A stretch of DNA of 64,000 nt from an uncultured Gammaproteobacteria bacterium (GTDB taxonomy: Bacteria > Patescibacteriota > Patescibacteriia > Magasanikbacterales > UBA922): the NCBI GenBank assembly GCA_964550845.1, contig CAZKAD010000003.1:447-64446 (forward strand), in the 5' to 3' direction. The translations under genes were made by a program, and so were the position numbers. Positions 10,573 to 52,785 of the stretch are shown one piece after another. Below the pieces are notes generated by a model, which was not told the origin of the DNA, ran no database searches, and saw nothing but the letters and a program-made list of their open reading frames with translations. Positions within the stretch are counted from its first letter, which is position 1; each line of letters begins with the position of its first letter.

Positions 10573-11247
10573 TTAATATTCTGTTTTCATCCACTTAAAA
10601 TTTTGAATCAACAAAAGCAAACGTGGGTCATACAATTCTTGTGTCAAGAAAAAAGACCAAGGATTTTTGTGAATAACATCTTTTGGAACACATTCAACGT
10701 CAGATAATCCCGCTGCAACAATCTCACATAGAGGATCATAACCACAATCAACTTTCTCTCCAATTATCCTCACAATTAATTCAAGGAGATAGTTATGATC
10801 ACAGACGATATCATCTTCTAGGCCATAGTCATGAGAACAGACACTAATTAATCCTTGAGAGTTAACTATTGCAATTTTAGCACAACGTTTTGAATCCTTT
10901 TCGATACCTGTTATACCAGAAAAAGGAAAATTTTTTGGTTCGAAATAAGACTTCTTTAACGTGTCAAAAATCCGATCATTTGGATAATTTTGTTCAATAA
11001 ACTGTTCGAACAATGGTAATTGCTCTAAAGTAAAAACTTTTTGTTCAATTCCATTCCAGATCCAATCTTCCTTCCAAAATATGTTATGGGAGAAGTAAAA
11101 GTAAAGCATTCCTTTTTCGAAAAATTTCTTATCAGTACCGAGATGAAAGAATAAATCCGGGCTATCTTTACAAGGTTGACATTTTTGTACAAATATATTT
11201 GCCGGGACTCGAAAGATTTCAATTGGGTGGAATTGAGGAATTATCAA
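10573..11247 (-). CDS. Member of the 'FLTxDLYDPRLL' family (F-box-like motif at the C-terminus)
   Basis: C-terminus ...NPWSFFLTQELYDPRLLLLIQNFKWMKTEY carries the family motif that is shared with five other ORFs in the window. Confidence 0.7.
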   Translation of the reverse strand: MIIPQFHPIEIFRVPANIFVQKCQPCKDSPDLFFHLGTDKKFFEKGMLYFYFSHNIFWKEDWIWNGIEQKVFTLEQLPLFEQFIEQNYPNDRIFDTLKKSYFEPKNFPFSGITGIEKDSKRCAKIAIVNSQGLISVCSHDYGLEDDIVCDHNYLLELIVRIIGEKVDCGYDPLCEIVAAGLSDVECVPKDVIHKNPWSFFLTQELYDPRLLLLIQNFKWMKTEY

Positions 11248-11256
11248 TGAAGGTTT

Positions 11257-11264
11257 AAAAATTG
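11257..11264 (+). promoter_or_regulatory. AAAATTGA octamer upstream of 11314..11865
   Basis: Exact octamer 50 nt upstream of the ATG. Confidence 0.45.
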
Positions 11265-11313
11265 ACTGTTCAACAAATTTTATTTGATTTAATCAATTTT
11301 AGTATTGTAATAA

Positions 11314-11865
11314 ATGCCCGTCGATAATTACCACTGTATCTACGGCTTCGTGTTCACTTTTGAACAAATTTGGCGGTGGTTTTACCCGAATGTTAAATAC
11401 AACGATGAAGAAAATAGTGGTTGGATGATCGACTTTATTGAGTTGTTTGACAATTCATTTGTACCTCATCGACTAGAAAAGTTTTATTCATTGTTGATGA
11501 AACAATTTCCAAATCAAATGAAAAAATTGTCCCGATTGACGATGAGACGATTACCTCATAATCATTCCTTTCTTCTTCCAAATAAAAATAAATATTCACA
11601 AGTTGCGGTTGGTATCTTTGCCAATATCGAAATGGAAGGAAAGGATGTCTTCTTCGAAATCTTTTATGACAAATATTTTGACCGAATCGAAAAGATCGGT
11701 CAAATTTGCCCGGCTTTGTGCCAAACTGAATGGTTTGATCTAGTAAAACCATTCCTTGTCTCTCCTGACGAGAGAACCGATCTTTTGAATGTGCTTGATT
11801 TCTTCTCTCGAAATGACGATCCGAAATTTTTACTTGTAGGAGACGATTGTGGATGCTGTAATTAA
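11314..11865 (+). CDS. Hypothetical protein ending in GDDCGCCN
   Basis: 183-aa ORF with an octamer promoter and a convergent terminator hairpin downstream. Confidence 0.6.
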   Translation: MPVDNYHCIYGFVFTFEQIWRWFYPNVKYNDEENSGWMIDFIELFDNSFVPHRLEKFYSLLMKQFPNQMKKLSRLTMRRLPHNHSFLLPNKNKYSQVAVGIFANIEMEGKDVFFEIFYDKYFDRIEKIGQICPALCQTEWFDLVKPFLVSPDERTDLLNVLDFFSRNDDPKFLLVGDDCGCCN

Positions 11866-11897
11866 CATCTTTGAATTCATCTCTTGAAAAGGTGGGT

Positions 11898-11922
11898 CTT
11901 TTCATTCCTCGAAAGGAATGAA
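11898..11922. terminator. Perfect 9-bp hairpin TTTCATTCCtcgaaaGGAATGAAA between convergent genes
   Basis: Inverted repeat read directly. It lies between the stops of 11314..11865 (+) and 11942..12952 (-). Confidence 0.6.
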
Positions 11923-11941
11923 ATTTTTAGGATGTTGGTTT

Positions 11942-12952
11942 TTAATCGCTTGGAAGGAACTTTTTGACTCTTTCAAGAGATTTCTTCATTGCGACGAGTT
12001 GATCTACTTCGGGTTTCACAGTCTTATAAGCTTCATCAAACAGCTGAGATAAATCCCAACACCATCCGTAATCTTTTTGTTTCTTAATGAATGCAGCTTT
12101 CATCCAATCGAAAACAATTTCTTCTTCGTTTTCGATTACGATCTTTCTTTTTCGAGGATTTTCAGGCTCATATGGAGGAGAAGGCTCGTTGATTGGTTTT
12201 TCAGCCGTCTTAGCATCTTGAGAAGGCACAACTACTTGTTGAGCAGGCTTGACATCTTGAGCAGGCTCAATTGCAGATTGAGGAGGAGCAGCCATCTTGA
12301 CTTCTTGACGAGACAAATATTGTCGATTATTTCCAATAAAATAATCAGTTTTGCGTCTAAAAGGCATCATGCAGTCAAGGTGATCGATTGACATTCCGTG
12401 TTTATCTTTGAAAACTTGAATAGTTTCAAAGTTATCTTCTTTTGACGCAAACTTTGGATGAACAAATACTCTTTCAAGTACCCATTCATTAAAACTTATG
12501 GGACGATTAGGTCGACAAAAATTGAGATGAGCAACTTGGTCAAAATGATGACCAAATTTTTCATTCAACTTTTCTAGAGAATTGGCTGTAACAACACAAA
12601 ATTCACTTTTGTCTCCTCTACCATTTTCAAAGAAATGACTCAGGATACAAATATATTTTCGAGTTTTTTGGAATTTAATTTTCTTTTGCCCTCCGTTCAA
12701 AATCTTCTTCAAATTATAAACTGCACGGCCATTAGTTACACAAGAAGATTTCAGTTCAAAGACGTCGTTTCCTTGTTTGATCTTTTTTTCTTCTTTGTTG
12801 ATGGCTTTGCTGTAGCTTTTAGCTTCAGCATAAGTAAAGTTATTCTTATTATAAAGAATACAATTGGACAAGATCAATTCGGCACCTTCACGGCCGCGTA
12901 ATTGATCTTTGTAGGCGCGTCGATATGTTACCACAACATGATATTGCTCCAT
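11942..12952 (-). CDS. Hypothetical protein; paralog of 13120..14076
   Basis: Blocks shared with the neighbouring gene: KYICILSHFF/QYICVFSQL, CVVTANSLEKL/AAVMVHSLDRKSIEKI and W.LE.VFVHPKF/WEFEGVFLHPDF, followed by a charged low-complexity tail. Confidence 0.65.
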   Translation of the reverse strand: MEQYHVVVTYRRAYKDQLRGREGAELILSNCILYNKNNFTYAEAKSYSKAINKEEKKIKQGNDVFELKSSCVTNGRAVYNLKKILNGGQKKIKFQKTRKYICILSHFFENGRGDKSEFCVVTANSLEKLNEKFGHHFDQVAHLNFCRPNRPISFNEWVLERVFVHPKFASKEDNFETIQVFKDKHGMSIDHLDCMMPFRRKTDYFIGNNRQYLSRQEVKMAAPPQSAIEPAQDVKPAQQVVVPSQDAKTAEKPINEPSPPYEPENPRKRKIVIENEEEIVFDWMKAAFIKKQKDYGWCWDLSQLFDEAYKTVKPEVDQLVAMKKSLERVKKFLPSD

Positions 12953-13071
12953 TCCGACGTTCTTACTAATTCAAAATTCCCCATTTCTTTTCGATGGGAA
13001 AATCAGTTTTCTCCGAAGAGATCACCGAAGATAAAAATTTTTATTCTTTTTTTCGTTTTCTATAATAGAGG

Positions 13072-13118
13072 GTAAACGTCCTTGGGACTGGTTAAACGTC
13101 TTGAAAGACTGGTTAAAA
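13072..13118. promoter_or_regulatory. Two tandem copies of the conserved intergenic palindromic element (TAAACGTCCttGGGACTGGTTAAA; CGTCTtgaaAGACTGGTTAAAA)
   Basis: Direct reading. Located immediately 3' of the stop of 13120..14076 (-). Confidence 0.6.
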
Positions 13119-13119
13119 T

Positions 13120-14076
13120 TTAGTCAGCGTAATAAGAGTCACCATGACTCTCGACAGTCAAATCAATTGACTCAATCTCTTCTCGGAAAACTTTTCTTGC
13201 CGAAGATGAATCTTCGTCATGTTCCTTTCTCTTTCGAGGAAGTTCTTCCTTGAGATGCATTTTACTCAAGCGAGGTTCATCTTGAGATGAGGAAACCTTT
13301 CGCTTTCTCATCTCCTTGTGTTCGGAGTCAGAATCGGACACGTGATCTTCTTCGTGGAGATGTTTGTTCTCAATTGGGAAATCAACTTCGGTCAAAACTT
13401 CGTCTTCTTCGAGTTTTCGCTTCCCCTTTTTCTCAGGTTTTCTCTGATGGTCAGACCATTCTTCATCGTCACTTGCATCTTCGCCCTTTTCGGCTCTCTT
13501 TTTGTCTCGATTGAATTCACGTTGAAAGTGTGTCGGGACTTTAGTACAAAGATTTGGTGCATCAGGAATAGGGAAGTCCGGATGTAAGAAAACTCCTTCA
13601 AATTCCCAATCACTGAGCTGTTGTCCTTCTGGAATCGAACGAATTTCATCTTTCTCAACAGGGAGTTTTTCCCAGTTTTGACTGATTACTACCCCGACAT
13701 TTTGTCTGGCGTCCTTGAGGACTGATTCAATCTTTTCAATTGACTTTCGGTCAAGTGAATGAACCATCACAGCTGCGAAATTAGATTCTTGATTGGCTCT
13801 TATTTCGACATTCTTTTTGGCCTTTGACAATTGGGAGAACACACAAATGTATTGCCAGTCATCTTCTTGATATTCAGGAGAAATATGCTTAAATTGGACT
13901 CCTTCCGGTCGAGCCTCAATTGTGAAGCCCTTCTTAGCAATCCTCTTTCTAGCGCTCTCAGTTGCTAAATACTTTTCCGCCTGCTGTGCATGATCAGCTA
14001 AACTAACTTGCTTGACAGTGAAAATCCTTTTGGTTGATCGTTCGAAGAAGACGACGAGACTCATTAGCGAAATCAA
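13120..14076 (-). CDS. Hypothetical protein; paralog of 11942..12952, with an acidic/basic C-terminal tail
   Basis: See the paralog blocks above. 318-aa ORF. Confidence 0.65.
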   Translation of the reverse strand: MISLMSLVVFFERSTKRIFTVKQVSLADHAQQAEKYLATESARKRIAKKGFTIEARPEGVQFKHISPEYQEDDWQYICVFSQLSKAKKNVEIRANQESNFAAVMVHSLDRKSIEKIESVLKDARQNVGVVISQNWEKLPVEKDEIRSIPEGQQLSDWEFEGVFLHPDFPIPDAPNLCTKVPTHFQREFNRDKKRAEKGEDASDDEEWSDHQRKPEKKGKRKLEEDEVLTEVDFPIENKHLHEEDHVSDSDSEHKEMRKRKVSSSQDEPRLSKMHLKEELPRKRKEHDEDSSSARKVFREEIESIDLTVESHGDSYYAD

Positions 14077-14138
14077 TTCACTCTACAGATTCAAAATTTA
14101 CTTTATTTCCAATAAAATTATCATTTTTAATAAAAGTA

Positions 14139-14166
14139 ATTAAACGTCCTTTTAGGACTGGTTAAA
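14139..14166. promoter_or_regulatory. Conserved intergenic palindromic element TTAAACGTCCttttaGGACTGGTTAAA; its TTA supplies the stop codon of 14162..14899
   Basis: Direct reading. The stop TAA (minus strand) lies inside the GGTTAAA flank. Confidence 0.6.
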
Positions 14167-14899
14167 TTATTCCGTAGACATACACACTACTTCCAGTTGC
14201 AAATAGTCTTCCAGAAGACTTTGACGTTACTCCCAAACTGCGAATAGGAGCTTGTGTTATTTTTAATGCCATTGGATATGTCATTACCCCGTATGCATTG
14301 GTTTCAAGTGAAGCCCATCCAACACAATCTGGAATAAATATCATTTTTGTTGTTCCAGTTGTAGCTGGATCTGAAATATATAAATTAACGGTTGCAAATC
14401 CATCATTCGGACCCGAAGGCCCTTGTGCAGAAATATCAAATTCTACGTTAGCAGTTGTATTAATTGTCGGGCCAGATCCTTGAAGCGAATATTTATTCAT
14501 AACCGTCGTAATCCCAGGTTCGTCGGGAAAAAATACTCCATATCTAAATGTGCCAGTCGTCGATAATTTCAAGTTAAATAGCACACGAAGAAAGTTATAA
14601 CCAGTCGCGTTAAATGAAAATGTTCCACTCGATACAGTTCCATTATTAAACACAAAACTGGTCAACAAATATTCACCATTGGTTCCATTTGGAGGGCCAA
14701 CCGGCCCAGTCGGTCCTGTTATTCCATTTCCAGAAGGGCCAGTTGGTCCGATCAATCCGGTTGTGCCAACTGGTCCAGGAGATCCCGAAGGACCAGTTAC
14801 TCCAGTCGCACCTCTGATAACCGGAATTAGATTTGTGAACAACGGAGACGTATTATTGCCGAGCCCGGATGTAAATTGAGAAACACGGAAAGAAGACAT
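14162..14899 (-). CDS. Collagen-like protein with GxT/GPT triplet repeats and a C-terminal globular domain shared by a fibre-like family
   Basis: MSSFRVS... N-terminus. Approx. 50 aa of [41 protein letters not shown]. The C-terminal domain ends ...[18 protein letters not shown]. Confidence 0.8.
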
Positions 14900-14957
14900 T
14901 TAATTGGCAAATTAATTTTTATTATTTTCTCAATTCTCCTTTATTCCAAATGAGAAA

Positions 14958-15755
14958 TTAAATTTCCGCGTGAAACGAAATTCGAGATCCAGGTGCAATT
15001 AATCCTCCACTCGAAGGTAACAAAGTAATTTTTGTAATTGCTCCAGTACTATTCCAGAAATGAACACCAGAATATTTTTGCCAATAGAAATACAAAGAAT
15101 CAGCTGGAAACTTTGACGACATTAGTACATCTTCAGAAGAAAATGTTTTTGGTATTCCTGTCACTCCATAAAGAGGAAAATCTATTTTTGCAAAACTATA
15201 GGTTCCAGTTGGGAGTGAGTTCGAAGCCATATTACCAATAAAAGCTCCAGTTAAATTTGATATGTGTAAGGTTCTTGAAATAGTATTGGAATCGTCTGGT
15301 CCGGTTGAAACTAAATAACGACATGCTGTTATATATGGGCCAGTGAGATCATTGATTCGAACCGCTAACCCTGTTCCTGTTCCAACATCAGTCGATCGAA
15401 ATGAACACAAACAAAAGATTTTTGAATATGATAGAGGGAAAGATTGAATTGATATCGAAGCTGTTGCAGAGGTAACAACTGTGGAATAAATTTGAACCAA
15501 TGCTGATCCAGAACCACTTGTGAGTGGACCGGTTGGACCGGTTACCCCAGTGGATCCAGTAGCTCCCGCTGGGCCCGCAACTCCATTGGGTCCAGTTGGC
15601 CCCGTTATTCCTGGAGCTCCAATTGATCCGACAGGCCCGGTTGGCCCGGTTGTTTCGGCATAAATTACTTCGGCTGAAATGGAATATACGGTTGGAACGT
15701 ACGGTTCAAGCAAAGAAACAGTTTTTGCAGCTACTCGAAACGAAGGACGATCCAT
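14958..15755 (-). CDS. Collagen-like protein (GPTGP repeats) with the family C-terminal domain
   Basis: Start set at the internal Met ([11 protein letters not shown]...) to match the paralog N-termini (MSFRVS) and to avoid overlap with 15782..16471. Repeats are [43 protein letters not shown]. Confidence 0.75.
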
Positions 15756-15781
15756 TGATATTTTGCTTCCGAATAAAATTT

Positions 15782-16471
15782 TTAATCGAGAAAATATAGC
15801 GATATTTTTGAGCCTGTCGCAAAATTTCCTCCGCTCACACTGAAAAAGGTAATATTTGACACGCCTGTAGACAATGCAGTTGTAATTAGAACATTTTCGA
15901 TGGAACCTGTATTTGAATCGACCCAACTGCCATGTTCACCAAACATCGTTAATGCATTCGACACATTCCGAGAAAGATTTGAAATGGTCAAGGTTTGAAC
16001 ACCAAAAGCTGTGGTACCAAGACCAGGGGTTTTATACGCATATCCGTATGTTGACGCAAATGCAAATCGAGTTGCATATGTAGATCCAGACAAGGAATAA
16101 TGTACCACATTGACATAAGGTCCAGAACTATTGTTGACTGTAACCCCAACTGGAGAACTGATCACATCCGAGAAACGAGTACACAACAAGGCTCGAATCG
16201 ATTTTATCGGCGAAGGAAATGATGTAAACGAAATCGAACTTGTCGCTCCCGTTAGCGTAACAGAACCAATCACCGACGAAACGATTGCAGCCACCGGGCC
16301 GGTTGGACCAGTTATAGCCGAACCAACTGATCCGGTTGGGCCTGTAGCTCCGGTTGGACCTGTCGCAACTTCTACAAAAGCCGGTCCTGTAGGTCCGGTT
16401 GGGCCGGTTGGGCCTGTAATTGGTAAAACAAGTCCAGGAGGACTGATTGAACTTGACACACGGAATGACAT
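15782..16471 (-). CDS. Collagen-like protein ([11 protein letters not shown] repeats) with the family C-terminal domain
   Basis: [59 protein letters not shown]... The C-terminus [21 protein letters not shown] contains the GNFATGS family motif. Confidence 0.8.
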
Positions 16472-16574
16472 GTTAATTCGGATAATTCAAATAATTTAGA
16501 TAATGTAAAATTTATTTAATCGCAAAATTTGCACAAAGTTCAGTAATTCGATTAAACATTTTCTGCTTAACAAA

Positions 16575-18950
16575 ATGTCTTTCACTATTGTCACTGGACT
16601 GATAGACATTCGTCGAGGAGAATGGAACAGTTATTTTCGTCGGAGCATCCAAAATTACTTTGCCTCAATGACCAAAGGGGTTCTTCGATACGATCATCCA
16701 ATGATTGTATTCATTGAGCAAGAATATTACCCTCAAGTTGTCGAACTCCGCGAAGAGTTTCCAAATACTCGGATTATTCCGGTTACATTGTCGCAAACTT
16801 ATTTGTATCCACAAAGAGACCGTATCGGACAGATTCAATCTTCTTCGGAATACAAAAGTTTACTGCGAGAAGAAAGCAAAGTTAATCCAGAGCATTGGTG
16901 TCCGGACTATGATATCGTCACAATTCAAAAGGCATGTTGGATGCGAGATGCAATTCGAGAAAATCCTTTTTCAACTGAATACTTCGTCTGGATTGATGGT
17001 GGATATAGCAAAGGAACACTTGGTCTGACCATTCCAGCTACACTTGATTTATCTCCAATTCTTCAAATGATGGATTCGTCAAAAATCTTCTTTCAAGTTC
17101 TCGGAGAATCTCCTCGGAATCCATCCTTATTTCCTCTTGACATGACTCCGCTCGACTATTTCAAGAAGAATGATACTTTTATTTCCGGAGGACTTTATCT
17201 TGCAGGTAAAGCAAGTTTACCAATTTTTGATTATTACATTGAATTGGTTGATAAATGTTTACAACAAAATCTGATTGATGATGACCAGTTTTACTGGTTT
17301 CTCTGTATGAATTGTTCCAGATTTGCTCCATCATTTGTAGCTTATTCAATCGATGGTTGGGGTGAAGTATTTGAATTATTGAAAGCTCTTTCATTACCAG
17401 GTCAAAGAAAAATTTCCTCTTCAGCAGAAGAAAAATTTGTCCAAGTCAGTCAGCCAAGGATTGCAGTTCTTCTCACTGGCAATATTCGATCTTGGAAATA
17501 TATTGATAAGGCTTGGATGAAAAATTTTGATTGCTATGCAATCACCTATCCGAATAAATATATGTATCATCCTTTTATTCAATCTCAAATTGGAACATTT
17601 GATAAGAAGATTGATCCAACAGAAGAACTTCGAGACTTTCCTTTTAAGAAGATTTGTACAGTCTCTCAAGATCGAGATGACGAAATGGAAGCAAAAATGC
17701 ACCCTGAAATGAAAAAGATTTATCATGGTTATTATCAATATCATACTTCTCTCGAAGCTTTCCATCAAATATCAGAATTAAATCATTATGATTTTGTGAT
17801 TCGCACTCGATTTGATTTACAACCTCCTCCTGGATTGTTGGACAATTTATATCGAATCCTTTCAGTGTTTGAACCGACATTGTTACTCAACTCACTTGGG
17901 GATTTCTCCAATAAACCCAATCTTCCAATCCAAACCAATTTGAATGAACTTCAAGGAATTGCGGCGAAATCTATTTTGTATCCTCCTGAAACAGCTGCAT
18001 TCTATACTTACAATCCAAATACTATTCCGTCAGATACAGTTTTTATGGGGCCGCCCGAGATGATAAAGAAGTTGTTAAGTTTTGCAATTTCATCATATTT
18101 TCAACCAAGTTCTGAAAATTGTTGGAAAAATCCTCCTCATGGAATCATTCGTGAATTTATCTTGAAAAATCAAATCACTACACATGTTGCCAATTTTGGA
18201 ACGATTTTCAGACCACTTCCTCTTGAAGATCTTCCACCAAGAAAGGAGACTCTTTCAATTGGATTGCTGATTTCTGGGAATCTTCGGGGAAAATCACTTG
18301 CCTTGCCTCCACAATATCTTTTGACTAAACATCATATTACCGTTTATTTTGCTTCTTGGATTGATGAAGATTTTCTTTATGCTATTCAAGATCTCGAGCG
18401 TCTATCAAAACAAGGAATTGAATACCGTCTGATGTTGTTTCCACGTTCAAGTTCTTCGAGAATTGTTGAAAGTAGTTCCTCTACAAATTATCAGACTTAT
18501 CCCGGAATCTGTGGAGAGAAAACATTCGGCAATGCTTGTTCAATGTGGTATCTGTTTGAACAAGGATTGCAAGCAATTAAAACTTCGGAGCAAAAATGCG
18601 ATTTGATTATTCGCTGGCGTCCAGATTTGATTCTCGATTCGAATTGTATGCTTGATGATGAATTGATGTATCAAAGTGTTGAAAAGAATTGTCTGATGAT
18701 GCCGAAGTGGCATGGAAAATTTGGAGATGTCAATCGGCAAATGATGGATCAACTTTTCTGGGGTCCCGTCGAATTGATGCAAAAACTTTGTCTTTATTCG
18801 AGTCGAAAAGAACATTCCGAACAATCCGAATTTGCCCATACCGGAGAAGGGATGCTTGCGAGAATGATTGAAAAGGAAAAGATTTCCCTCGAACGTTTCC
18901 CAGCTCATTATGGGCTAAGGAGGAATGATCGTGTTGAAAAGATTGTTTGA
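16575..18950 (+). CDS. Large hypothetical protein with three internally repeated modules; possibly carbohydrate-modifying, by its position between the collagen-like genes and a glycosyltransferase
   Basis: 791-aa ORF. The repeated module starts are FTIVTGLIDIRRGEW, IAVLLTGNIRSWKY and IGLLISGNLRGKSL. Function is not established. Confidence 0.7.
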   Translation: MSFTIVTGLIDIRRGEWNSYFRRSIQNYFASMTKGVLRYDHPMIVFIEQEYYPQVVELREEFPNTRIIPVTLSQTYLYPQRDRIGQIQSSSEYKSLLREESKVNPEHWCPDYDIVTIQKACWMRDAIRENPFSTEYFVWIDGGYSKGTLGLTIPATLDLSPILQMMDSSKIFFQVLGESPRNPSLFPLDMTPLDYFKKNDTFISGGLYLAGKASLPIFDYYIELVDKCLQQNLIDDDQFYWFLCMNCSRFAPSFVAYSIDGWGEVFELLKALSLPGQRKISSSAEEKFVQVSQPRIAVLLTGNIRSWKYIDKAWMKNFDCYAITYPNKYMYHPFIQSQIGTFDKKIDPTEELRDFPFKKICTVSQDRDDEMEAKMHPEMKKIYHGYYQYHTSLEAFHQISELNHYDFVIRTRFDLQPPPGLLDNLYRILSVFEPTLLLNSLGDFSNKPNLPIQTNLNELQGIAAKSILYPPETAAFYTYNPNTIPSDTVFMGPPEMIKKLLSFAISSYFQPSSENCWKNPPHGIIREFILKNQITTHVANFGTIFRPLPLEDLPPRKETLSIGLLISGNLRGKSLALPPQYLLTKHHITVYFASWIDEDFLYAIQDLERLSKQGIEYRLMLFPRSSSSRIVESSSSTNYQTYPGICGEKTFGNACSMWYLFEQGLQAIKTSEQKCDLIIRWRPDLILDSNCMLDDELMYQSVEKNCLMMPKWHGKFGDVNRQMMDQLFWGPVELMQKLCLYSSRKEHSEQSEFAHTGEGMLARMIEKEKISLERFPAHYGLRRNDRVEKIV

Positions 18951-18987
18951 ACTTTTTGAACTTTTTGAACTTTTGAAATAAAAAGCA

Positions 18988-20005: not shown

Positions 20006-22171
20006 TTATGCGCTGAGATAAACCCACCTTGCTCGACTAAACATAAATCGAGCTGTACCAAGACTATCTAAAAGGCTTGCAGTTGGTATTGAAATTACAC
20101 TTCCTCCTGCACCTGCAAGATTGCTCCCGTTTTCAGTCGTCAATGTCAATAAATTACTTCCCCCAGTAATTATTACAATCATCATACCTTCATATGCTAA
20201 AGTTATAGGCAATATCAACGTGTAACCGTTAACTGTATCGACATTTTCAAAGTATGTTCCTATCATACTTCCAACTCCTAGATTGAATGTTCCTCCTCCT
20301 TCCGGAATTAAAACTAATCCGTGTGCCCATGTTTTTAATGCCGGTAAATGATCAACGATTAAAGAACTTCTGTAATAATTACTTCCGGTTCCAAATGATT
20401 TGTCATCTTGATGTAAAATAGTCCATCCAGAAGCACTTGTTACATTCACTCGATTACATCCTATTAAACATAAATTTCTTGAATCTGTGGAAGTGCACCC
20501 TGATGAATAAGCCATGAATACACCAGTAGAACGCAAACAGAAACCCGACGGACTTGACAGAAGCATACAACTATCCGATCCAGAAGCTCTTGATCCAGTT
20601 GCCAGCAAAATAGAAACAAATTTGGATGATAATATATTTGAATCGTGCGCGAATAAGATTGAACAATTAACTGGAGAAGGATTTGTTATTGGGTTTATTG
20701 TCGAAACAGCTTCTGGACGGGCATTTAAATTCATTCTGTTATTTGCACCTCCTACAATTAACGAATATAACCCAGCATGCATTGTCGATCCAGATGATAC
20801 TAAAATACCACAGTTTCTCGGGGGTATTATAGCATTCCAATCAAAATTATTGACTAGAATGCTATCTAGAGTTAGTCTATTACCGAATCCTCCCATGATA
20901 AAAGAATTTGAAGATCCTGACATTAAAGATGAAGGTGAAAATAAAATTGCAGAATTATTGCATCGAGCTGAAACAGTCGCATTATTCGAATGTGCAATTA
21001 AACAGTCAGTCGATCCTGACATAATAGAACTTATCGAGCCAATAGATGTGGCTCTTATTGCATTGGTTACTACAGAACTTTCTCCTCCGATTAAATTGCT
21101 TGTATCCGATCCGTTCATTGTTGTAGATTTTGAGCCGATGTTAGAACTATGAATTGAAGAACCGACTGAGCTAGCATATGCTAATAGATTAATATTTTCA
21201 GAAGAAGTAACTGTATTGAATTCTCCGGCAATCATCGAATATGAAGATTGATTAACAGTATTTTGTAGCCCTGATACCACACTTGAACCAGTTCCTCCGG
21301 TCGTAATTGTTCCGGAAATTCCTCCTAATATCGATCCTATTGAAGCTTGATTAACGGGAGTTCTACCAAAAGAGATTGATTCTGTATTTGATAATAGTCC
21401 TTGAGGTCCAGTGACTCCCGTCGGTCCTAAATTTCCTTGAACTCCTTGAACTCCTTGAACTCCTTGCGGTCCAGTTGGTCCAATTGGGCCTTGAACTCCT
21501 TGAACTCCTTGACTTCCATTCGCTCCCGCGGGTCCAGTTGGACCTGTCACACCCTGAATTCCTTGACTTCCGTTTGCACCTGCAGGACCAGTTGGTCCGG
21601 TTGCACCCGTAGGACCATTCGCTCCCGCGGGACCAGTTGGTCCGGTTGCACCCGTGTTAGTTGAGAATCCATCTGCTCCCTGAGGTCCAGTTGGACCTGT
21701 CGCTCCCGCAGGACCATTCGCTCCCGCAGGACCAGTTGGTCCGGTTGCACCCGTATTGGTAGCCGAGCCTGGAATTCCTTGCAATCCGGTTGGACCTGTA
21801 ACTCCGGCTACTCCTTGAGGTCCTGTTGGTCCTGTCGCTCCTGTGCTTGTAGCAGAGCCTGGAATTCCTTGAGGTCCAGAAGGTCCAGTTGGACCTGTTA
21901 TTCCAATTATTCCCTGAGGTCCAGTTGGTCCGGTTGCTCCTGTGCTTGTAGCCGAGCCTGGAATTCCTTGTGGTCCAGTCGGTCCTAAATTTCCCTGTAC
22001 TCCTTGAATTCCTTGTACTCCTTGTGGACCAGTTGGCCCAATTGGCCCTTCAGGACCCTGAGGACCTGTGGCTCCTGTACTTGTTGCAGAACCGGCAGGC
22101 CCTGTTGGCCCAATGCCAGCGCCGAGAAGAAGTAAAGGAGTATAAGAATTAAGGTTAATAATTCTTGACAT
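20006..22171 (-). CDS. Large collagen-like protein with approx. 250 aa of Gxx/GPT triplets at the N-terminus and a Ser/Thr/Asn-rich beta-rich C-terminal region; fibre-like
   Basis: [49 protein letters not shown]... and so on, followed by an approx. 450-aa S/T/N/G-rich region. Confidence 0.8.
21400..22130. repeat. Coding collagen triplet-repeat DNA (GGTCC/AGTTGG periodicity)
   Basis: Direct reading. The periodic 9-nt codon pattern generates the spurious antisense ORFs 21437..21664, 21547..21750 and 21779..21988. Confidence 0.85.
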
Positions 22172-27350: not shown

Positions 27351-27857
27351 ATGTCAAAATTCTACACTGATGAACTCAGACATAAGCCGTTGGCTGAAAT
27401 CAGAGAAATTGTACGTCAGAGAAGTATGAATAATATTTTCAAGCAACTCGAAGATAAACTACTTAAATTTGAACACGATTTTCTCGATAGAAAACTTGAT
27501 GATCAAACTTATCGGTTTGATATTTCATTCGATTTTTCTGTCAATTCTCTTCAACTTGCCCGGGATGTATGTAAGCAAATACGTGCTTGGGCCAAGCAAA
27601 AAGATATTGCTATCGGGAAAATTCCAACGACCACAACTCCGCGTAAAATAAGTGTCGATTTTCAATGGAAGCTTGTTCAAAGACCAACGGGATTTTTCGT
27701 CTTGAAAAATCTCACTCTGCTTGGTCTTTCAAGTGAACAAGAGCAAAGTGTATGGACAAAATTTTTGACCCAAGAACTATATGATCCAAGACTGCTTGGA
27801 TTGATCTATTCATTTTTACATTCCACCAAAACTTCAACGTCTCAAAAAACCAATTAA
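27351..27857 (+). CDS. Member of the 'FLTxDLYDPRLL' family (F-box-like motif at the C-terminus)
   Basis: C-terminus ...LTLLGLSSEQEQSVWTKFLTQELYDPRLLGLIYSFLHS... Confidence 0.65.
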   Translation: MSKFYTDELRHKPLAEIREIVRQRSMNNIFKQLEDKLLKFEHDFLDRKLDDQTYRFDISFDFSVNSLQLARDVCKQIRAWAKQKDIAIGKIPTTTTPRKISVDFQWKLVQRPTGFFVLKNLTLLGLSSEQEQSVWTKFLTQELYDPRLLGLIYSFLHSTKTSTSQKTN

Positions 27858-45091: not shown

Positions 45092-45193
45092 TTATCTATT
45101 TTTTAATTTGAAGAGAAACCCTCCTTCTTAAAGATCCCAAGTATTTCAAACGCTAAAAACTTTCTCTAAATCGAAAACTTCATTACTTTCAAC

Positions 45194-46504: not shown

Positions 46505-46551
46505 AATGATAAAACGATAAAATGAAAGTAGATAAACGAAATAATTAAAAA

Positions 46552-46575
46552 TTCTTCACCTCTCAAGGTGAAGAA
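46552..46575. terminator. Perfect 9-bp hairpin TTCTTCACCtctcaaGGTGAAGAA between convergent genes
   Basis: Direct reading. Located between the stops of 45194..46504 (+) and 46585..47886 (-). Confidence 0.6.
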
Positions 46576-46584
46576 AAATTATTC

Positions 46585-47886
46585 TTATTCTTTTGGTAGA
46601 GAAAGATCGAAGTTTGGAAAAGATGCTCGAAAATCAAGCACTTTTGCACCAACACTCATTGCATATTTTCTTCGTGAAAGATAATGCTTTTCAAGATTGG
46701 GTAAATTGTCTACCAAGTCGACAATAATAGGAGAAACATCTTCTCTACGGACACATCTTCCAAAATATTGTGCAAACATTTCTTCGACATCAGAAGCAAG
46801 GATTAACATATCCAATTTTGGATGATCAAAACCAACTCCACTCTTCGAGAAAGTAGTGACCAGAATTCTTGCATCACGATTGAAATCTGATTTCGATCCA
46901 GTCGTATAATCAACGCTCTCTTTACAGTGCAATAAATTGTAATACAAAGTTTCTGTTTGTTTAACTCTTTTACAAAGAACTAAGATATTTCTGTCTTTAA
47001 ACAGGCGACATAACTGAATGATCCAAATATTTCTCTGATTATGATCGGCTTGAAAAGCTAGCACTGAATTCCAATCAGTTCTTCCTTGCATATTCATTTT
47101 CTTTGGAGGAATCAGTCTTGTTTCGAGTTTGTAGTAGATACATTCAACTTGAAGAGGTACAATAATTCGATCTTCACTAAAATGAAGATCAAGAATTTTA
47201 TCCATTTCGTCACTTCGATCTGGTGTTGCAGTCAAACCAATACAAATTTTAGGGCAAAAATAAAAGAGAGCTCGACTCATCTTTTCGGAACAAATCGCAT
47301 GTGCTTCATCAACAATCAGACAACCAATATTAGCAAATTCTGCTCTGTTTCTTTTCATTACATTAATTGGATTCATTAAGACAAAGTCCGCTGATGGATC
47401 AATTAGCGACTTACTATCAAGCAGCTGAACTTTTGCTTTCGGAAGAACCTTTTCAATAGTTTCCTTCCATTGATCAAATAAACTAATACGATGCATTAAT
47501 ACCATGGTTTGATATCCAAACAAAGAAGCGAGATAAATTGAAGTCAATGTTTTTCCTTTTCCTGTAGCCATAGATAAGAAAGCTGTTCTCACTTTCAACA
47601 ATCGTTCAATTGCTTGTTTAGCAACTTTTTCCTGATATTCTCGAAGTTTTCCTTCAAACGGTAAAGATTTTTGTGTAAACGGAAAAGCTTCATTTGGATA
47701 TTGTTTCAAATATTGACAGCCGAAATAAAAAGGAAGATAGACATTTTCACCATCAATTTCATATGCGTTCACTACAACGCCTTCAGTTTGAATAAATGGA
47801 TTATCTTTACTTCTTACTTCAAGTTGTTGAGTTAAAGTTTCACGCTGTTGCTGTGTAAGTTTTTGAAGAGGAACAGCAATTGACAT
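46585..47886 (-). CDS. SF2 helicase (DEAH box; NCLDV D6/A18-like, XPB-type)
   Basis: Motif I ATGKGKT, motif II LIVDEAH, motif III GLTATPDR and motif VI QYFGRCVRR. Confidence 0.8.
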   Translation of the reverse strand: MSIAVPLQKLTQQQRETLTQQLEVRSKDNPFIQTEGVVVNAYEIDGENVYLPFYFGCQYLKQYPNEAFPFTQKSLPFEGKLREYQEKVAKQAIERLLKVRTAFLSMATGKGKTLTSIYLASLFGYQTMVLMHRISLFDQWKETIEKVLPKAKVQLLDSKSLIDPSADFVLMNPINVMKRNRAEFANIGCLIVDEAHAICSEKMSRALFYFCPKICIGLTATPDRSDEMDKILDLHFSEDRIIVPLQVECIYYKLETRLIPPKKMNMQGRTDWNSVLAFQADHNQRNIWIIQLCRLFKDRNILVLCKRVKQTETLYYNLLHCKESVDYTTGSKSDFNRDARILVTTFSKSGVGFDHPKLDMLILASDVEEMFAQYFGRCVRREDVSPIIVDLVDNLPNLEKHYLSRRKYAMSVGAKVLDFRASFPNFDLSLPKE

Positions 47887-47924
47887 TCAAAGGACTTTTG
47901 AGATTGGTTTTGAGATTGAGATTG

Positions 47925-47968
47925 ATTAAACGCCAGAGGGCTGGTTAAACGCCAGAGGGCTGGTTAAA
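47925..47968. promoter_or_regulatory. Two tandem copies of the conserved palindromic element with a variant stem (TTAAACGCCAGagggCTGGTTAAA x2), in a divergent intergenic region
   Basis: Direct reading. The flanks are conserved and the stem differs (GCCAG/CTGGC) but still pairs, which is a compensatory change. It lies between the starts of 46585..47886 (-) and 48040..49707 (+). Confidence 0.55.
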
Positions 47969-48039
47969 GATTTCTTTCTTCTTCTAAAGACAAAGAGTCA
48001 ATTTTTTGGTACTTACTTTTACTTCCTTAACATCAACAA

Positions 48040-49707
48040 ATGCCTCGTCGATCGACTCGACTTCATTTTCGAAAACTTGAAAATGGCGAAGTCATTCTTC
48101 TGAATGATAATCCAAATAGCGTCGAAGATGACGCAATCGAAGTTGTGACACGTGGAGGAAAGAGAAAACTAATTTTTGATGACGAAGATCAACCAGTTGA
48201 AGTTGATGTTCCTCCATTAGCCCAATTGAATCCTCCAGTTTCAAATATTCAAAAGAATGAGTTTGATCCACTTGAACAAACTTATATCGACTTTTACACT
48301 CTTGTAATTGGGGACGAGAAACTTTCTCGCAAACAAAGAAAATTACTCCGGGGTTATTGTAAAGAAGTGATTCAAGAGCAACCATCAGCTTTAAAGTTAC
48401 TTACGAGTAACATCTTTCATTCAGATAAATTAAAGTTACTTGAAATGCTTCGAGTGTTGAAGGATAAAGATCCGGACTCAGAAGATTATCTTGATTACAA
48501 AAAAGTTTATCAAACTAAATTTGAATCTGCACAGCGAAATTTCGATGAATTGTTAAGTCTACCACCTGATCTACAACGATCTCATACCGAAGAAAAAGAT
48601 CGAATCGACAAACTTGCCCAAAAGAAATCTTTTTCATTTCAAATCATCAATCTTCCTGTTGATGATGAGACTAAACGTTTCATCTATCAACGATATATTC
48701 ACTATGAACGAATGGGTAATAGTGATGATGAAAAGCCAAAACTTGAACAATGGTTGAACACAGTCTTGCAGATTCCGTATAAAGTGTTTATTGATCTTCC
48801 TTCAGAACGAGAATTTTGTTTGCGTAATTTTCGAGATATTCTTGATCGGGAAATTTATGGCATGCAAGTAGTCAAAGAGCAACTGTTGGTCTTTTTGAAT
48901 ACCAAATTGACCAATCCGCATGTTCAGGGATCCAATCTTGCTCTCCTTGGTCCTCCGGGAGTAGGTAAAACAAAAATTGCTCGCTTAATGGCGAAGGCAC
49001 TCAATCTTCCTTTTGCTCAAGTTCCTTGCGGCGGCCTTGAATCAATCGATCGTATCCGAGGTCATTCATATACTTATATTGGTTCTCAACCAGGTGAAAT
49101 AACTTCAGCCGTCCTTTCAATGAAAGCAAACAATGGGGTTATGTTCTTTGATGAATTTGAAAAGATTGGAAGTGAAAAAGCTCATCTGACTAATAGTTTG
49201 TACAATATTTTTCTCCATATTCTTGATCCTGAGCAAAATGGGAACTTTCATGATGATTACCTCGGGCTTGAAATTCCGATTGATCTTTCTCGAATGTGGT
49301 TCATTCTTGCAATGAATAGTTTACCAAATTTTCAACCTTTGATTGACAGATTGTATGTTGTTCAAGTTCCAGCATATACAATTCGAGAAAAGATTATTAT
49401 CGCCCAACGACATTTAATTCCGGAGATTTTCGCTGCATTGAAACTTGATCAAAATAGTATCATATTTACCGATGAAATTATCTCTCGTATTATTCATCAC
49501 TTTAATCTATCCAGTATTCCGGGTTTGAGACAATTAAAGAATATTCTTCGAGAGATTGTGCTAAAGATTCATTTCCTTCAAACGTCAAATCTTCAAATCT
49601 CTTTTCAATTGAAGAATATGAAACTTCCTTACAAACTTCAAGAAGAAGATCTTGATAAACTTCAATTAAATGTGAGTAAAGAAGATCGCCCTTCAATGTG
49701 GACTTGA
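48040..49707 (+). CDS. Lon-type AAA+ ATPase module with no protease domain
   Basis: [54 protein letters not shown]...[12 protein letters not shown]...LHILDPEQN...LAMN..., compared with E. coli Lon [55 protein letters not shown]...LFLLDEIDKMSSD...LEVLDPEQN...FVATSN. The ORF stops about 30 aa after the AAA+ alpha-subdomain and no Ser-Lys protease domain follows. Confidence 0.8.
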   Translation: [555 protein letters not shown]

Positions 49708-49769
49708 AACTCGTCCTTCACCGTGGACTTGAAACTCGTCCTTCACCGTGGACTTGAAACTCGTCCTCG
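49699..49769. repeat. Three tandem copies of a 25-nt hairpin repeat (TGGACTTGAAACTCGTCCTTCACCG); the first copy overlaps the last codons and stop of the Lon-like gene
   Basis: Direct reading. Each unit carries the inverted repeat GGAC..GTCC. The array is followed at 49770..49777 by AAAATTGA for the Pol X gene. Confidence 0.8.
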
Positions 49770-49822
49770 AAAATTGATTAAATTTCTGATTTTTGTTAAT
49801 CAACAAAAATCAATTAATAGTA

Positions 49823-50770
49823 ATGTCCTCAAAGAAAATCGAATTTGAGAGAGGAGTTCCTCGAACTGAGTTTCTCTTTCAACTTGAAGCTCTGACAAGA
49901 GCTGCGAAAGGATTTCGAAAAAGAGCATTCACCAACGCAATTGAATCACTGAAGGGAATCTCAAACGAACTCCTCTATTACAACGATCTTCATGAATTGA
50001 AGGGATTTGGAGAAGGAATGTTAAATCGGTTTCTTGAATATCAGTCAACTGGCCAACTCAAAGAGCTAATTTTTTCTGCCGAAGAACAAGAACGCAAGCG
50101 AGTACTCGATCTTTTTCAAGGTATCTATGGAGTTGGAGAAGTTACTGCAACTGTTTGGTATGAGAAAGGTTTGCGTTCACTTGAAGATTTGATTAAATTC
50201 AATATTCCCTTGACCGATCATCAACGAGTTGGATTGTATTATTACAATCAAATTAATTCGCGAATTGAGCGAAAAGAGATTGATGAATTTAACCAACAAC
50301 TTCAAAAGAAAGTTGTTGAGTTTAATCAAGAAAATAAGGTACAAATTGAAATGAAAATATGTGGTAGCTATCTTCGAGGTAAAACGACTTCTGGTGATAT
50401 TGATGTAATCGTTCGAGAAAAGAATGATCAGTTACCTTGTTTAATTGATAGTCTATTGAAATATTTATATCCACTTGTTCGACATATTCTTGGTCAAGGT
50501 AATGTTAAAATTTTGACTCTTGGAGGATCAACAGATATCCATCGAAGAATCGACTTTGAACTCGTTGAGAATGCAAGATGGCCATTTGCCTTATTGTATT
50601 TCACTGGTTCAAAAGATTTTAATCGACAAATGAGAGAGATTGCAAAAAAGAAAGGTCTTCTTCTCAATCAACGAGGCTTATTTTACGGCAATCAAGAATT
50701 TCTTTACAAAGAAGAAAAAGATATTTTTGATGCCCTCGGAATGACTTACTTATCTCCTGAACAACGATAA
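49823..50770 (+). CDS. DNA polymerase family X (Pol beta-like)
   Basis: GIYGVGEVTATVWYEKGLRSLEDL (HhH), CGSYLRGKTTSGDIDVIV (nucleotidyltransferase motif; compare Pol beta GSFRRGAESSGDMDVLL) and FALLYFTGSKDFNRQMR. Start taken at MSSKK (49823), 46 nt downstream of AAAATTGA. Confidence 0.85.
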   Translation: MSSKKIEFERGVPRTEFLFQLEALTRAAKGFRKRAFTNAIESLKGISNELLYYNDLHELKGFGEGMLNRFLEYQSTGQLKELIFSAEEQERKRVLDLFQGIYGVGEVTATVWYEKGLRSLEDLIKFNIPLTDHQRVGLYYYNQINSRIERKEIDEFNQQLQKKVVEFNQENKVQIEMKICGSYLRGKTTSGDIDVIVREKNDQLPCLIDSLLKYLYPLVRHILGQGNVKILTLGGSTDIHRRIDFELVENARWPFALLYFTGSKDFNRQMREIAKKKGLLLNQRGLFYGNQEFLYKEEKDIFDALGMTYLSPEQR

Positions 50771-50795
50771 CCTCCTTCTCCTTTCGAGGAAAAGG

Positions 50796-50803
50796 AAAAT
50801 TGA
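50796..50803 (+). promoter_or_regulatory. AAAATTGA octamer upstream of 50838..51749, preceded by the hairpin TCCTTTCGAGGA at 50779..50790
   Basis: Exact octamer 35 nt upstream of the ATG. Confidence 0.5.
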
Positions 50804-50837
50804 TTTATTTTGGAAACAAACGGGGAAAAATAAATCA

Positions 50838-51749
50838 ATGACGTCAACTCTTCAGTTTCCGAAGCGACTCGAAGAACATGGAATTAAGATTGTTTTTGCG
50901 ATCGAGAAACCAATCGTCACAATAAGTCATGACAATGTAAACGATTTTACAGTTGACTTTACCGATGAAAAAGCAAGTTTAACCAATCCTAAAGGACGTT
51001 TAACTCGAGGTTGTCGTAAAGAGACAATGAATAAGGGCGAAGAAGGCGATTGGTATTTTCTTCGTTCAAACAATGGTATCTATACAATTCGCAGCAGATG
51101 TGATTGGCAAGTAATTGATCCAAATGGTAAGCCAATATTCAAGCTGGATCATTTTCCTCAACGATGTCCCACAATCTCTCCTTCTGGAAGATATATTTCT
51201 TACGTGATATGCTCTCGTGTCATCGAAAAGACTAAAAGTATACTCATTGATCTTCAAGATCAAAAGATTTTTGAATATATAGGATTACCGGCTAACTTTT
51301 CACCAGATGAAAAGTATTTTGCTTATCCTCTTGTGAATGAGGTGTTTGTTTGCACTACTAAAGATAAGAAGCTTGTTATCCAACATTCTTTTTCAAAATA
51401 CAATCCTCACATTAACACTGTTCTTTTGTCTAACACTCATATCGTCATTATTTGGAGAGGCTTGCATGGAACTATAAAAGTAATGAAAATTGGTGAAAAA
51501 AATGTCACACATACTGATCAATCAGCATATTACCATATTCACTCTCATCTTTATTCTGATGGAACTCTATTATCTGTTGGAACAGATGAAATTAAAAAGA
51601 TCAAGTTTAATTTTGAAGAACCGAAGATTGAATCAGTTCCTCCAAATATCGAGATGAATCAAAAAGACGATTCGGTTCCTTCAAATATCGAGATGAATCA
51701 AAAAGACGATTCGGTTCCTCCAAATATCGAGATGAATCAAAACGTTTGA
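50838..51749 (+). CDS. Hypothetical protein (possibly a beta-propeller) with three C-terminal PPNIEMNQKDDSV repeats
   Basis: 303-aa ORF. 3x 39-nt repeat at 51640..51745. Confidence 0.6.
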   Translation: MTSTLQFPKRLEEHGIKIVFAIEKPIVTISHDNVNDFTVDFTDEKASLTNPKGRLTRGCRKETMNKGEEGDWYFLRSNNGIYTIRSRCDWQVIDPNGKPIFKLDHFPQRCPTISPSGRYISYVICSRVIEKTKSILIDLQDQKIFEYIGLPANFSPDEKYFAYPLVNEVFVCTTKDKKLVIQHSFSKYNPHINTVLLSNTHIVIIWRGLHGTIKVMKIGEKNVTHTDQSAYYHIHSHLYSDGTLLSVGTDEIKKIKFNFEEPKIESVPPNIEMNQKDDSVPSNIEMNQKDDSVPPNIEMNQNV

Positions 51750-51758
51750 ACATTTTAA

Positions 51759-51800
51759 TCATCCTTTGGGATGATTAAACGTCCTTTGGGACTGGTTAAG
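51759..51800. terminator. Hairpin ATCATCCtttGGGATGAT followed by the conserved element TAAACGTCCtttGGGACTGGTTAAG between convergent genes; its TTA is the stop of 51796..52785
   Basis: Direct reading. Confidence 0.65.
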
Positions 51801-52785
51801 TATAAAACTCTTTACGAATTTTCTTCGGAAAAAGATCTTGTAAAGTATCAACTAATTCGGAGTCGTGTTCAATCAAACATTGTAAACATTCTCGTTTATC
51901 TATTTTATTTGCACGAAGTAATATTTCGAGTTCATCTGGATGTTCGATTAAGTGTTCAGAAAATGGACATTCAAGAAAGATAAATAAATCAAGGGAGAAA
52001 TGATATCTCAATATCTTTTCCCAAAGAGGATGACTCTTCGAAAAATATTCAAAGAAAATTTCAATCTGAAAACCACCAAAAGAATTGAAGGAAGTAAACC
52101 TGGTTAAAGACAAATTCCATCTTTGATTAATGTCATCAAGAATTTGATCTCCTGGGAAATATTTCTTTATCATTTGATACCATCGGTGATAATCAATAAA
52201 AGTAAAGTTTAGCGATTGCAAAAAAAGTAGGAAAATTTTCGCCTCGATACTAACTCCATATTCCAAATAAACTGTTCCAGCTTGATGAATATCTTCGGCT
52301 AGATTCATAAAAATAAATTTAATATCATCAAACGAAAGTACATCCTGTTTTCGTTTATACTTCAAGAGTAAATTAAGCAAGTGATATTTTTCTGATACAA
52401 TTACATATACTGAGTATTCGTGCAAAAGTTTAAATCCAGAAATGCAATAATTATTTACCAATGAAAAAATATAATCTATCATTTCCGGTGAAGATAAATC
52501 GATGCAATGATAACTTGTATGCAAAGGTGACCAATAAAATGCGGTTATGTCTCCGCGGATATATTTTTGTGCCGTTTTAATAAAAAGATCATCTGGGAAA
52601 TAACATATCAAACCTCTTGGATAAATGGCTTGTAATTTATCTGCTTGGGAGAGATCAACAAAATTGGTAATTAACAAAAATAATCTTGGATCATACAAAT
52701 CTTTTGTTAAAAAAGAATTCCAATTTGTCTCTCGATTAGATAAACCTGACGCAATTAATTGAATCAAACGGTCAGAAATTGACAT
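51796..52785 (-). CDS. Member of the 'FLTxDLYDPRLL' family, with the motif at the N-terminus
   Basis: N-terminus MSISDRLIQLIASGLSNRETNWNSFLTKDLYDPRLFLLITNFVDLS... Confidence 0.65.
   Translation of the reverse strand: MSISDRLIQLIASGLSNRETNWNSFLTKDLYDPRLFLLITNFVDLSQADKLQAIYPRGLICYFPDDLFIKTAQKYIRGDITAFYWSPLHTSYHCIDLSSPEMIDYIFSLVNNYCISGFKLLHEYSVYVIVSEKYHLLNLLLKYKRKQDVLSFDDIKFIFMNLAEDIHQAGTVYLEYGVSIEAKIFLLFLQSLNFTFIDYHRWYQMIKKYFPGDQILDDINQRWNLSLTRFTSFNSFGGFQIEIFFEYFSKSHPLWEKILRYHFSLDLFIFLECPFSEHLIEHPDELEILLRANKIDKRECLQCLIEHDSELVDTLQDLFPKKIRKEFYT

Follow-up and report, generated by a model that had tools for sequence, protein, structure and literature searches.

A portable three-helix module of giant-virus proteins, encoded alongside a viral Skp1, as a candidate docking box for cullin-RING ubiquitin ligases

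Introduction

The adaptor boxes of cullin-RING ubiquitin ligases are, to our knowledge, few in number (the F-box, the SOCS/BC box, the DCAF H-box and BTB), and the viruses known to us to hijack these ligases usually carry a copy of one of these boxes. Receptors of cullin-RING ligases typically bind their substrates through ankyrin repeats (ANK), leucine-rich repeats (LRR) or WD40 propellers, as in the PRANC/ASB, FBXL and FBXW/WSB proteins respectively, and a SOCS box brings in Elongin BC together with a cullin. In poxviruses, ANK/PRANC proteins use a truncated F-box at the C-terminus to bind Skp1 and bring their targets to a Skp1-cullin-F-box (SCF) ligase (PMC4353913). In the chlorovirus PBCV-1 the viral Skp1, A039L, is described as binding two viral ankyrin proteins (A682L/A607R) by a C-terminal F-box-like motif (PMC7019647). 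Here we describe a short module, which we name the YDPR box, that is found in six proteins encoded by a 64,000-nucleotide stretch of contig CAZKAD010000003.1 (the window, meaning the whole stretch of DNA analysed), together with a homolog of Skp1 (vSkp1).

The shared segment is a new self-contained module of approximately 40 residues and three helices. By analogy with the systems above we place the YDPR box, as a putative new family, in the same functional class as the F-box, PRANC and the SOCS box. Searches of the literature, for the motif and for Skp1 of giant viruses, and of family databases turned up no earlier description of the module, and a word-indexed protein search with it returned only 6-8 short open reading frames (ORFs), none of them named.

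A module shared by six proteins

A sequence-only reading of the window had picked out three ORFs said to carry the same module as a trio of other proteins. All three are present with the peptides quoted for them: A at 10573-11247 (- strand), B at 27351-27857 (+) and C at 51796-52785 (-). A six-frame motif scan found exactly six window proteins with the module, namely A, B, C and the trio T1, T2 and T3, following the pattern hLxxLIxxGL…WxxFLTx[DE]LYDPRLLxLIxxF. C is the only one of the six with an N-terminal module, the other five having it C-terminally, as had been read for A, B and C. While the members of the trio are full-length paralogs with 28-32% identity, BLASTP finds only a module of 36-49 residues common to A, B and C or shared by these with the trio, which bears out the claim that their remaining sequences are unrelated. 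The description of the module as identical was overstated, since the copy in A is 36-47% identical to the other five over aligned segments of ~40-54 residues. Aligning all six, as had been suggested, gives a mean pairwise identity of 59% in a 21-residue core.

The module of A (DPLCEIVAAGLS…WSFFLTQELYDPRLLLLIQNF) lies at 10597..10737 (-, 53.0 bits with the family hidden Markov model, HMM), at the C-terminal end of its gene, and has an insertion of 9-10 residues in the loop between helix 1 and helix 2. That of B (FVLKNLTLLGLS…WTKFLTQELYDPRLLGLIYSF) lies at 27696..27815 (+, 56.8 bits), near the C-terminus of a protein of 168 amino acids (aa), and that of C (DRLIQLIASGLS…WNSFLTKDLYDPRLFLLITNF) at 52660..52773 (-, 66.1 bits), where it forms residues 5-42 of 329 and follows LIQLIASGLS. 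In the trio the module of T1 is at 59813..59923 (-, 53.3 bits), at the extreme C-terminus of gene 59810-60862 (350 aa), that of T2, a variant reading LFDPRIL, at 60992..61102 (-, 61.6 bits) in ORF 60947-62038, and that of T3 at 62049..62159 (-, 58.3 bits) in gene 62013-63074 (353 aa). The six scores of 53-66 bits (E 1e-15 to 1e-20) compare with 9 bits for the next best of the 1082 window ORFs.

We consider it next to impossible that this similarity arose by chance or as a DNA artefact such as a repeated element, assembly duplication or recent gene conversion. The module core, written as a degenerate DNA pattern, matches the window four times and none of 100 shuffled versions, and hundreds of diverged copies occur in independent assemblies. 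The identities of the six modules at the first, second and third codon positions are 0.64, 0.72 and 0.42, and identical residues share the same codon in just 47% of cases. Synonymous sites are thus randomised among the six, so conservation acts on the protein and the modules are not recent or homogenised DNA copies. A DNA repeat or gene conversion as the cause is refuted by the codon-position test, the shuffles and the HMM scores taken together.

The module is also more conserved than the protein that carries it. Identity in the module and in the rest of the protein is 0.64 vs 0.37 for the trio, 0.61 vs 0.35 for A, 0.78 vs 0.44 for B and 0.53 vs 0.32 for C. Relatives were found for A (P0008, P0053, P0071 and P0077), for B (P0059 and P0066) and for C (P0052 and P0161), the last two likewise having the module at the N-terminus.

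Conserved core and predicted fold

Over 160 copies the core reads W-x-x-F-L-[T]-[RKQ]-[GDE]-L-Y-D-P-R-L-[LF]-[LI]-x-I-x-x-F. D, P and R are invariant in all 160, F, L and Y are almost so, and an amphipathic helix ending in G-[LF] stands before the core. AlphaFold2, run on an alignment of 98 modules, gives a compact three-helix unit with a predicted local distance difference test score (pLDDT) of 85.7 and a predicted template modelling score (pTM) of 0.61. Helix 1 corresponds to hLxxLIxxG[LF] and helix 2 to WxxFL, followed by the L-Y-D-P-R turn and by helix 3, LLxLIxxF. Three helices are what the sequence-only reading had expected, and the predicted structure is a compact unit of ~40-50 residues, as in the F-box. 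The three-helix prediction, the varied positions of the module within proteins, its stand-alone copies and its occurrence as an exon of its own together indicate that it is autonomous, and it does not prove to be part of a larger shared globular domain.

A portable family with many partners

An exhaustive search of 1.84 billion representative proteins with the module profile returned 305 clusters (clustered at 50% identity) at E<=0.001, of which 21 reached E<=1e-10. Of 155 database proteins, 107 have the module at the C-terminus, 14 at the N-terminus and 17 in the interior, the remaining 17 being short ORFs. In the loci that we fetched, the 202 unique copies include 160 C-terminal (~79%), 17 internal, 7 N-terminal and 6 that stand alone. 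The analogy drawn earlier between the N-terminal module of C and the placement of the F-box therefore does not carry far, as N-terminal copies are rare (7/202). Modules can be dense: loci totalling 815 kb contain 245 of them, and as many as 12 occur within 20 kb.

Sorted by BLAST, the partner regions of 144 proteins make up 97 groups unrelated to one another. Together with the varied positions and the separate exon, this upholds the idea of a portable autonomous motif of ~40 aa attached to unrelated domains. A comparison of domain architectures, also suggested earlier, reveals ankyrin, LRR, WD40 and orphan partners in the relatives: Pfam finds eight WD40 propellers and seven LRRs on 147 database matches, and a census of 131 non-redundant module proteins from metagenomic loci contains 22 with ankyrin, 12 with LRR, eight with WD40 and two with DUF4116. 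For the classification of partner regions by jackhmmer the module was masked. In the 22 ankyrin proteins the repeats are N-terminal to the box, a PRANC-type layout, and in most of them the box ends within one residue of the stop codon. Genes for ankyrin and box occur in tandem arrays of nine (L078), six (L072) and five (L041). None of the six window proteins has an ankyrin match in Pfam. The ANK, LRR and WD40 partners mean that the repertoire fits that of cullin-RING substrate receptors.

In two contigs with a G+C content (GC) of 0.51 (L003 and L004) the module is a separate exon. An intron of 55/56 nucleotides (nt) with GT…AG ends stands at the same position in both, in the linker between LRR domain and box (L003 3990-4045, L004 961-1015; GTAAGT/GTTAGT…CAG), and joins the box in frame to the LRR domain. 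The spliced products align seamlessly with intron-less homologs, and both contigs are gene-dense and virus-like. In a further protein, P0086, a similar insertion may be read through in frame.

As two thirds of the partners are orphan domains, the box might instead be an address or assembly tag outside the ubiquitin system, which for example sends proteins into the virion or to the viral factory, or a domain for oligomerisation or for docking on another conserved viral protein, and it would then co-deliver or co-localise effector-like proteins. Some ORFs are hardly longer than the box, no homology to any ligase box was found, and a terminal position with an invariant surface motif resembles a sorting or packaging signal. 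However, we know of no such signal in giant viruses, and with their repeated ANK, LRR and WD40 fusions and their tandem arrays the module proteins are built like proven viral ligase adaptors. Encoded alongside is a Skp1 without other obvious viral clients, and the early-type promoters on several members suit effectors more than structural cargo. A tag of this kind is in our view unlikely.

Search for homology to known boxes

Reference alignments of the F-box, SOCS box and UBA domain were built and each was validated by a search of the PDB. Their profiles recovered 48 distinct F-box sequences, 13 of SOCS/ASB/SPSB type (the SOCS-box profile retrieving SOCS1-4, ASB7/9 and SPSB3) and 68 UBA sequences. 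No F-box, PRANC, SOCS box, UBA or recurrent Pfam family was found in the six window proteins at E<=1 or in 98 isolated modules at E<=10, and two Pfam scans of full-length module proteins found no common family over the module. Searched against PDB sequences, the module profile matched no F-box protein at E<=10 and gave two chance matches at E ~0.6. The hhalign probabilities for the module were 0.5% with the F-box, 0.1% with the SOCS box and 0.4% with UBA, the last aligning helix 1 and G-[LF] only. Membership in the F-box (PF00646/PF12937), PRANC (PF09372), SOCS-box (PF07525) and UBA/CUE families is unsupported at the profile level, and so is the proposal that the module is an F-box or PRANC motif: there is no Pfam match even at E<=10, no PDB sequence match and no more than 0.5% from hhalign.

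Very remote homology of so short a domain to F-box/PRANC, the SOCS box or UBA is possible. A true but extremely diverged F-box or PRANC homolog, as opposed to an analog, would account for the F-box-like size and three-helix content, the shared partner repertoire and the co-occurrence with Skp1, and poxviral F-boxes show that drastic change can be tolerated (PMC4353913). This explanation is nevertheless improbable, because all homology tests were negative with working positive controls, the hallmark pattern of the F-box is missing, the conserved positions differ and the loops are longer.

A viral Skp1 homolog

The proposed docking partner of the module is encoded at 2660..3277 on the + strand. 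Judged by its Pfam and PDB sequence matches this ORF of 205 aa is a genuine Skp1 homolog in which both Skp1 domains are present, with 38.6 bits for Skp1 (PF01466, cut-off 22.3) and 24.7 bits for Skp1_POZ (PF03931, cut-off 21.9). It shares 26% identity with human SKP1 over 157 aa (E 9e-15). Its top PDB matches are all Skp1, residues 31-183 aligning to 4-149 of 155 and so including the C-terminal F-box-binding helices. Elongin C, which is without these helices, matches weakly and in the BTB part only (E 1.6e-3). vSkp1 also has an N-terminal extension of ~30 residues that is acidic or of low complexity.

Relatives of vSkp1 are few, a search of 5.8 billion proteins returning just eight. A Skp1 51% identical to vSkp1 lies 3.4 kb from a module gene (L082), and one 42% identical occurs in a different lineage with GC 0.50 (L086), with three module ORFs within 10 kb. 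The L082 contig belongs to CALMMZ01, a bin described below, meaning that a Skp1 and a large family of boxes co-exist there. The L086 contig also has genes for a histone-fold protein (258 aa) and a TATA-binding protein, at 5360-6136 and 10353-11051.

Pfam searches of 76 window ORFs found no ubiquitin-system gene other than Skp1, so that genes for Elongin B/C, a cullin or a RING partner are also lacking. The presence of vSkp1 in the same window is circumstantial support for the idea that the module binds an adaptor. The box could recruit a ligase through some other adaptor, whether host Elongin C, host Skp1, DDB1 or a cullin directly, in which case vSkp1 would be unrelated to it and would serve host F-box proteins. 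The mostly C-terminal place of the box and its ANK, WD40 and LRR partners fit the SOCS-box families (ASB and WSB) at least as well as the F-box, the L-x3-[IV]-x3-[LF] spacing in helix 1 recalls the BC box, and a conserved Pro stands before helix 3, as in the Cul5 box. Furthermore, an invariant YDPR across lineages whose Skp1s are just 42% identical fits a highly conserved host partner. Poxviruses have ANK/BC as well as ANK/PRANC proteins (PMC8695901). Set against this are the value of 0.1% from hhalign with a validated SOCS-box profile and the gene content of the window, where Skp1 is the only adaptor and Elongin B/C, cullin and RING are lacking. We rate a different adaptor as one of the less likely explanations.

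Giant-virus origin and distribution

The window is DNA of a giant virus (a nucleocytoplasmic large DNA virus), with GC ~0.37 and genes crowded on both strands. Its proteins are also recorded on a contig of 81,018 bp, their sources including NCBI and Logan. Pfam identifies a minor capsid protein P9 domain and the giant-virus families DUF5767, DUF5832, DUF5891, DUF5754 and DUF2738, as well as DNA polymerase X and protein kinases. The carriers found elsewhere are all metagenomic and come from freshwater and groundwater assemblies (Hainich H41, ERZ724522, ERZ650304 and the JACCD*/JACCE* series). They form at least two groups by GC, 0.33-0.41 and 0.47-0.57, in addition to one contig of GC 0.21.

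Independent scans of IMG/VR (2.9 million viral contigs), a DNA pattern included, found no YDPR box, and the carrier clade appears to be missing from this catalogue. A strict DNA pattern scan of a genome collection based on GTDB found 20 stretches, 17 of them on contigs of CALMMZ01. This metagenome-assembled genome (MAG; SRR5676435_bin.113, loci L088-L107) is filed as 'uncultured bacterium'; YDPR boxes occur on 12 of its contigs, and it contains the 38,003-bp Skp1-bearing contig of L082. This MAG clearly represents the genome of a giant virus. A Paceibacterota MAG (GC 0.21) and a Babeliales MAG likewise include short contigs with boxes (L089; L105). A bacterial origin was rejected, since apart from the mis-binned viral MAG the genome collection gave only two short contigs and a single match due to chance.

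Early-promoter octamers and gene starts

The octamer AAAATTGA is the promoter motif of mimivirus early genes (PMC5294985). It shows no overall enrichment in the window (23 sites vs 23.9 expected), and its excess lies in its placement: 16 of the 23 sites are in sense orientation 5-130 nt upstream of start codons, where a null fraction of 6.4% is expected (P ~1e-14). Counting gene A and the true start of T2 raises this to 18 of 23, these sites standing 30-110 nt from the start codon. The placement suggests an Imitervirales-like transcription system. One octamer (2587..2594, +) stands 66 nt upstream of vSkp1, and others are found 46 nt upstream of gene A (11293..11300, -), 32 nt upstream of the probable ATG of T2 at 61963 (61995..62002, -) and 32 nt upstream of T3 (63106..63113, -). 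T1 and B have versions with one mismatch, and C has none. Further sites include those at window positions 5996, 6887, 11258, 29542, 34878 and 50796. With the octamer before vSkp1 and several module genes, these genes may act early in infection.

The ORF start of T2 at 62038 overlaps T3. The true start is probably the ATG at 61963, which gives a protein of 338 aa, because a 338-aa form is present in NCBI, this form aligns to T1 and T3, and the octamer stands 32 nt upstream. In gene A the ATG kept in relatives (P0008 begins MIPQFHPIEIF) is ATA here, at window 11242-11247 (-). The listed ORF opens at a TTG one codon upstream, and the next in-frame ATG is 46 codons downstream. The gene may have a damaged start, a non-AUG start or a sequence variant.

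Other genes of the window include a fusion of 1204 aa at 6928-10542 (+), which combines NADAR, a phosphatase-like region, a methyltransferase of cap guanine-N2 type and a poly(A) polymerase regulatory (2'-O-methyltransferase) domain. Three proteins with collagen triple-helix repeats are encoded at 14162-15926 (-) and 20006-22171 (-), and an HtrL/YibB-family protein of 791 aa at 16575-18950. Near protein C is a hybrid histidine kinase of 601 aa (HisKA, HATPase_c and a receiver domain) at 54377-56182 (+). This is an odd cargo for a virus, and its protein cluster has JGI/IMG, NCBI and Logan members on other contigs.

Discussion

We propose that the YDPR box is probably a docking box that ties diverse target-binding domains, which are ankyrin, LRR and WD40 in the relatives and orphan domains in the window, to a cullin-RING ubiquitin ligase. 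vSkp1 would be the preferred docking partner, its BTB half bridging to a host cullin. Each YDPR-box protein would then be a substrate receptor that sends host or viral proteins to ubiquitination, and vSkp1 and those module genes that have an early-type octamer may do so early in infection. That the box docks on some ligase adaptor, be it vSkp1 or another, seems to us fairly probable. The more specific proposal, in which the box is a new substrate-receptor box docking on vSkp1, is made tentatively and by analogy, with chances a little short of even. It draws on the partner repertoire, the co-encoded Skp1, the near-absence of canonical F-boxes and the chlorovirus and poxvirus precedents.

A number of observations weigh against docking on vSkp1. 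No sequence, profile or fold link to a known Skp1-binding box was found with Pfam, with hhalign (0.5% against the F-box) or with Foldseek, which returned no match for the module in the PDB or BFVD. Most module proteins (87 of 131) have no Pfam match or recognisable substrate-binding fold, and all six in the window are among those without such a fold. The ankyrin counts were drawn from four loci of one environment, a single groundwater data set. Skp1 co-occurs with the module on three contigs, which mostly shows that the two share a genome, and 75 module loci with flanks of up to 10 kb yielded just one further Skp1. vSkp1 could serve host F-box proteins instead. The 815 kb of loci gave one weak match to an F-box profile and none to a SOCS-box profile, and in the window nothing exceeded 8 bits for the F-box profile and no SOCS-box match was seen, but the F-box screen used a small home-made profile that could miss divergent viral F-boxes. 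Finally, the excess of the early octamer at the module and vSkp1 genes is not significant (4/7 vs 14/59 of the others, P=0.08).

A broader scenario is that the YDPR box arose independently of the F-box and co-evolved with vSkp1 into a private SCF-like system with dozens of receptors per genome, in a freshwater and groundwater clade that IMG/VR lacks and that is in part wrongly filed among bacterial MAGs. This we offer as speculation, conceivable but doubtful as a whole. Whatever its function, the YDPR-box family marks a clade of giant viruses overlooked by current viral catalogues. Should docking on vSkp1 prove correct, a box unrelated in sequence to the known ones, paired with a viral Skp1, would be a new solution to ligase hijacking. 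It would also provide a handle on large orphan gene families of giant viruses, each member being a candidate receptor with a host target, and protein-degradation tools would gain a compact tag for docking on Skp1, perhaps an orthogonal one.

Comparison with known systems

Cellular F-box proteins resemble the YDPR-box proteins in that a three-helix box of ~40-50 residues is joined to WD40 (FBXW) or LRR (FBXL) domains. F-boxes bind Skp1, and a Skp1 homolog is encoded in the YDPR-box window. The F-box hallmark L-P…I/L…V-C-K-x-W is not present in the YDPR box, however, and the G-L, W-x-x-F-L and Y-D-P-R of the latter have no counterpart in the F-box. The F-box is normally N-terminal to the repeats whereas ~79% of YDPR boxes are C-terminal, and in the predicted structure the loops of the YDPR box are the longer.

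In the SOCS/BC-box proteins (ASB, WSB and SOCS) a helical box of ~40 residues is likewise found at the C-terminus of ankyrin or WD40 domains, and its last helix is likewise initiated by Pro. Neither an L-x3-C nor an LPxP signature of SOCS type is present in the YDPR box, and the window yielded no homolog of Elongin.

The poxviral ankyrin/PRANC proteins (PF09372) are similar in having a short helical box at the extreme C-terminus of ankyrin proteins, encoded by multigene families and tandem arrays in a large DNA virus, and relatives of the window virus share these poxvirus-like arrays of ANK with a C-terminal box. PRANC differs in being a truncated F-box of two helices, while the YDPR box has three helices and an invariant Y-D-P-R turn. 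PRANC is found on ANK only, whereas the YDPR box is found on ANK, LRR, WD40 and ~90 orphan domains and is sometimes N-terminal. Poxviruses use the Skp1 of the host, while the window virus encodes its own.

The closest functional precedent for the proposed pair of vSkp1 and YDPR box would be A039L and A682L/A607R of PBCV-1 (PMC7019647). There too a giant virus of protists encodes its own Skp1 together with viral repeat proteins that bear a C-terminal Skp1-interaction motif. The difference is one of scale, with two such ANK proteins in PBCV-1 and hundreds of proteins of many domain types carrying the YDPR box.

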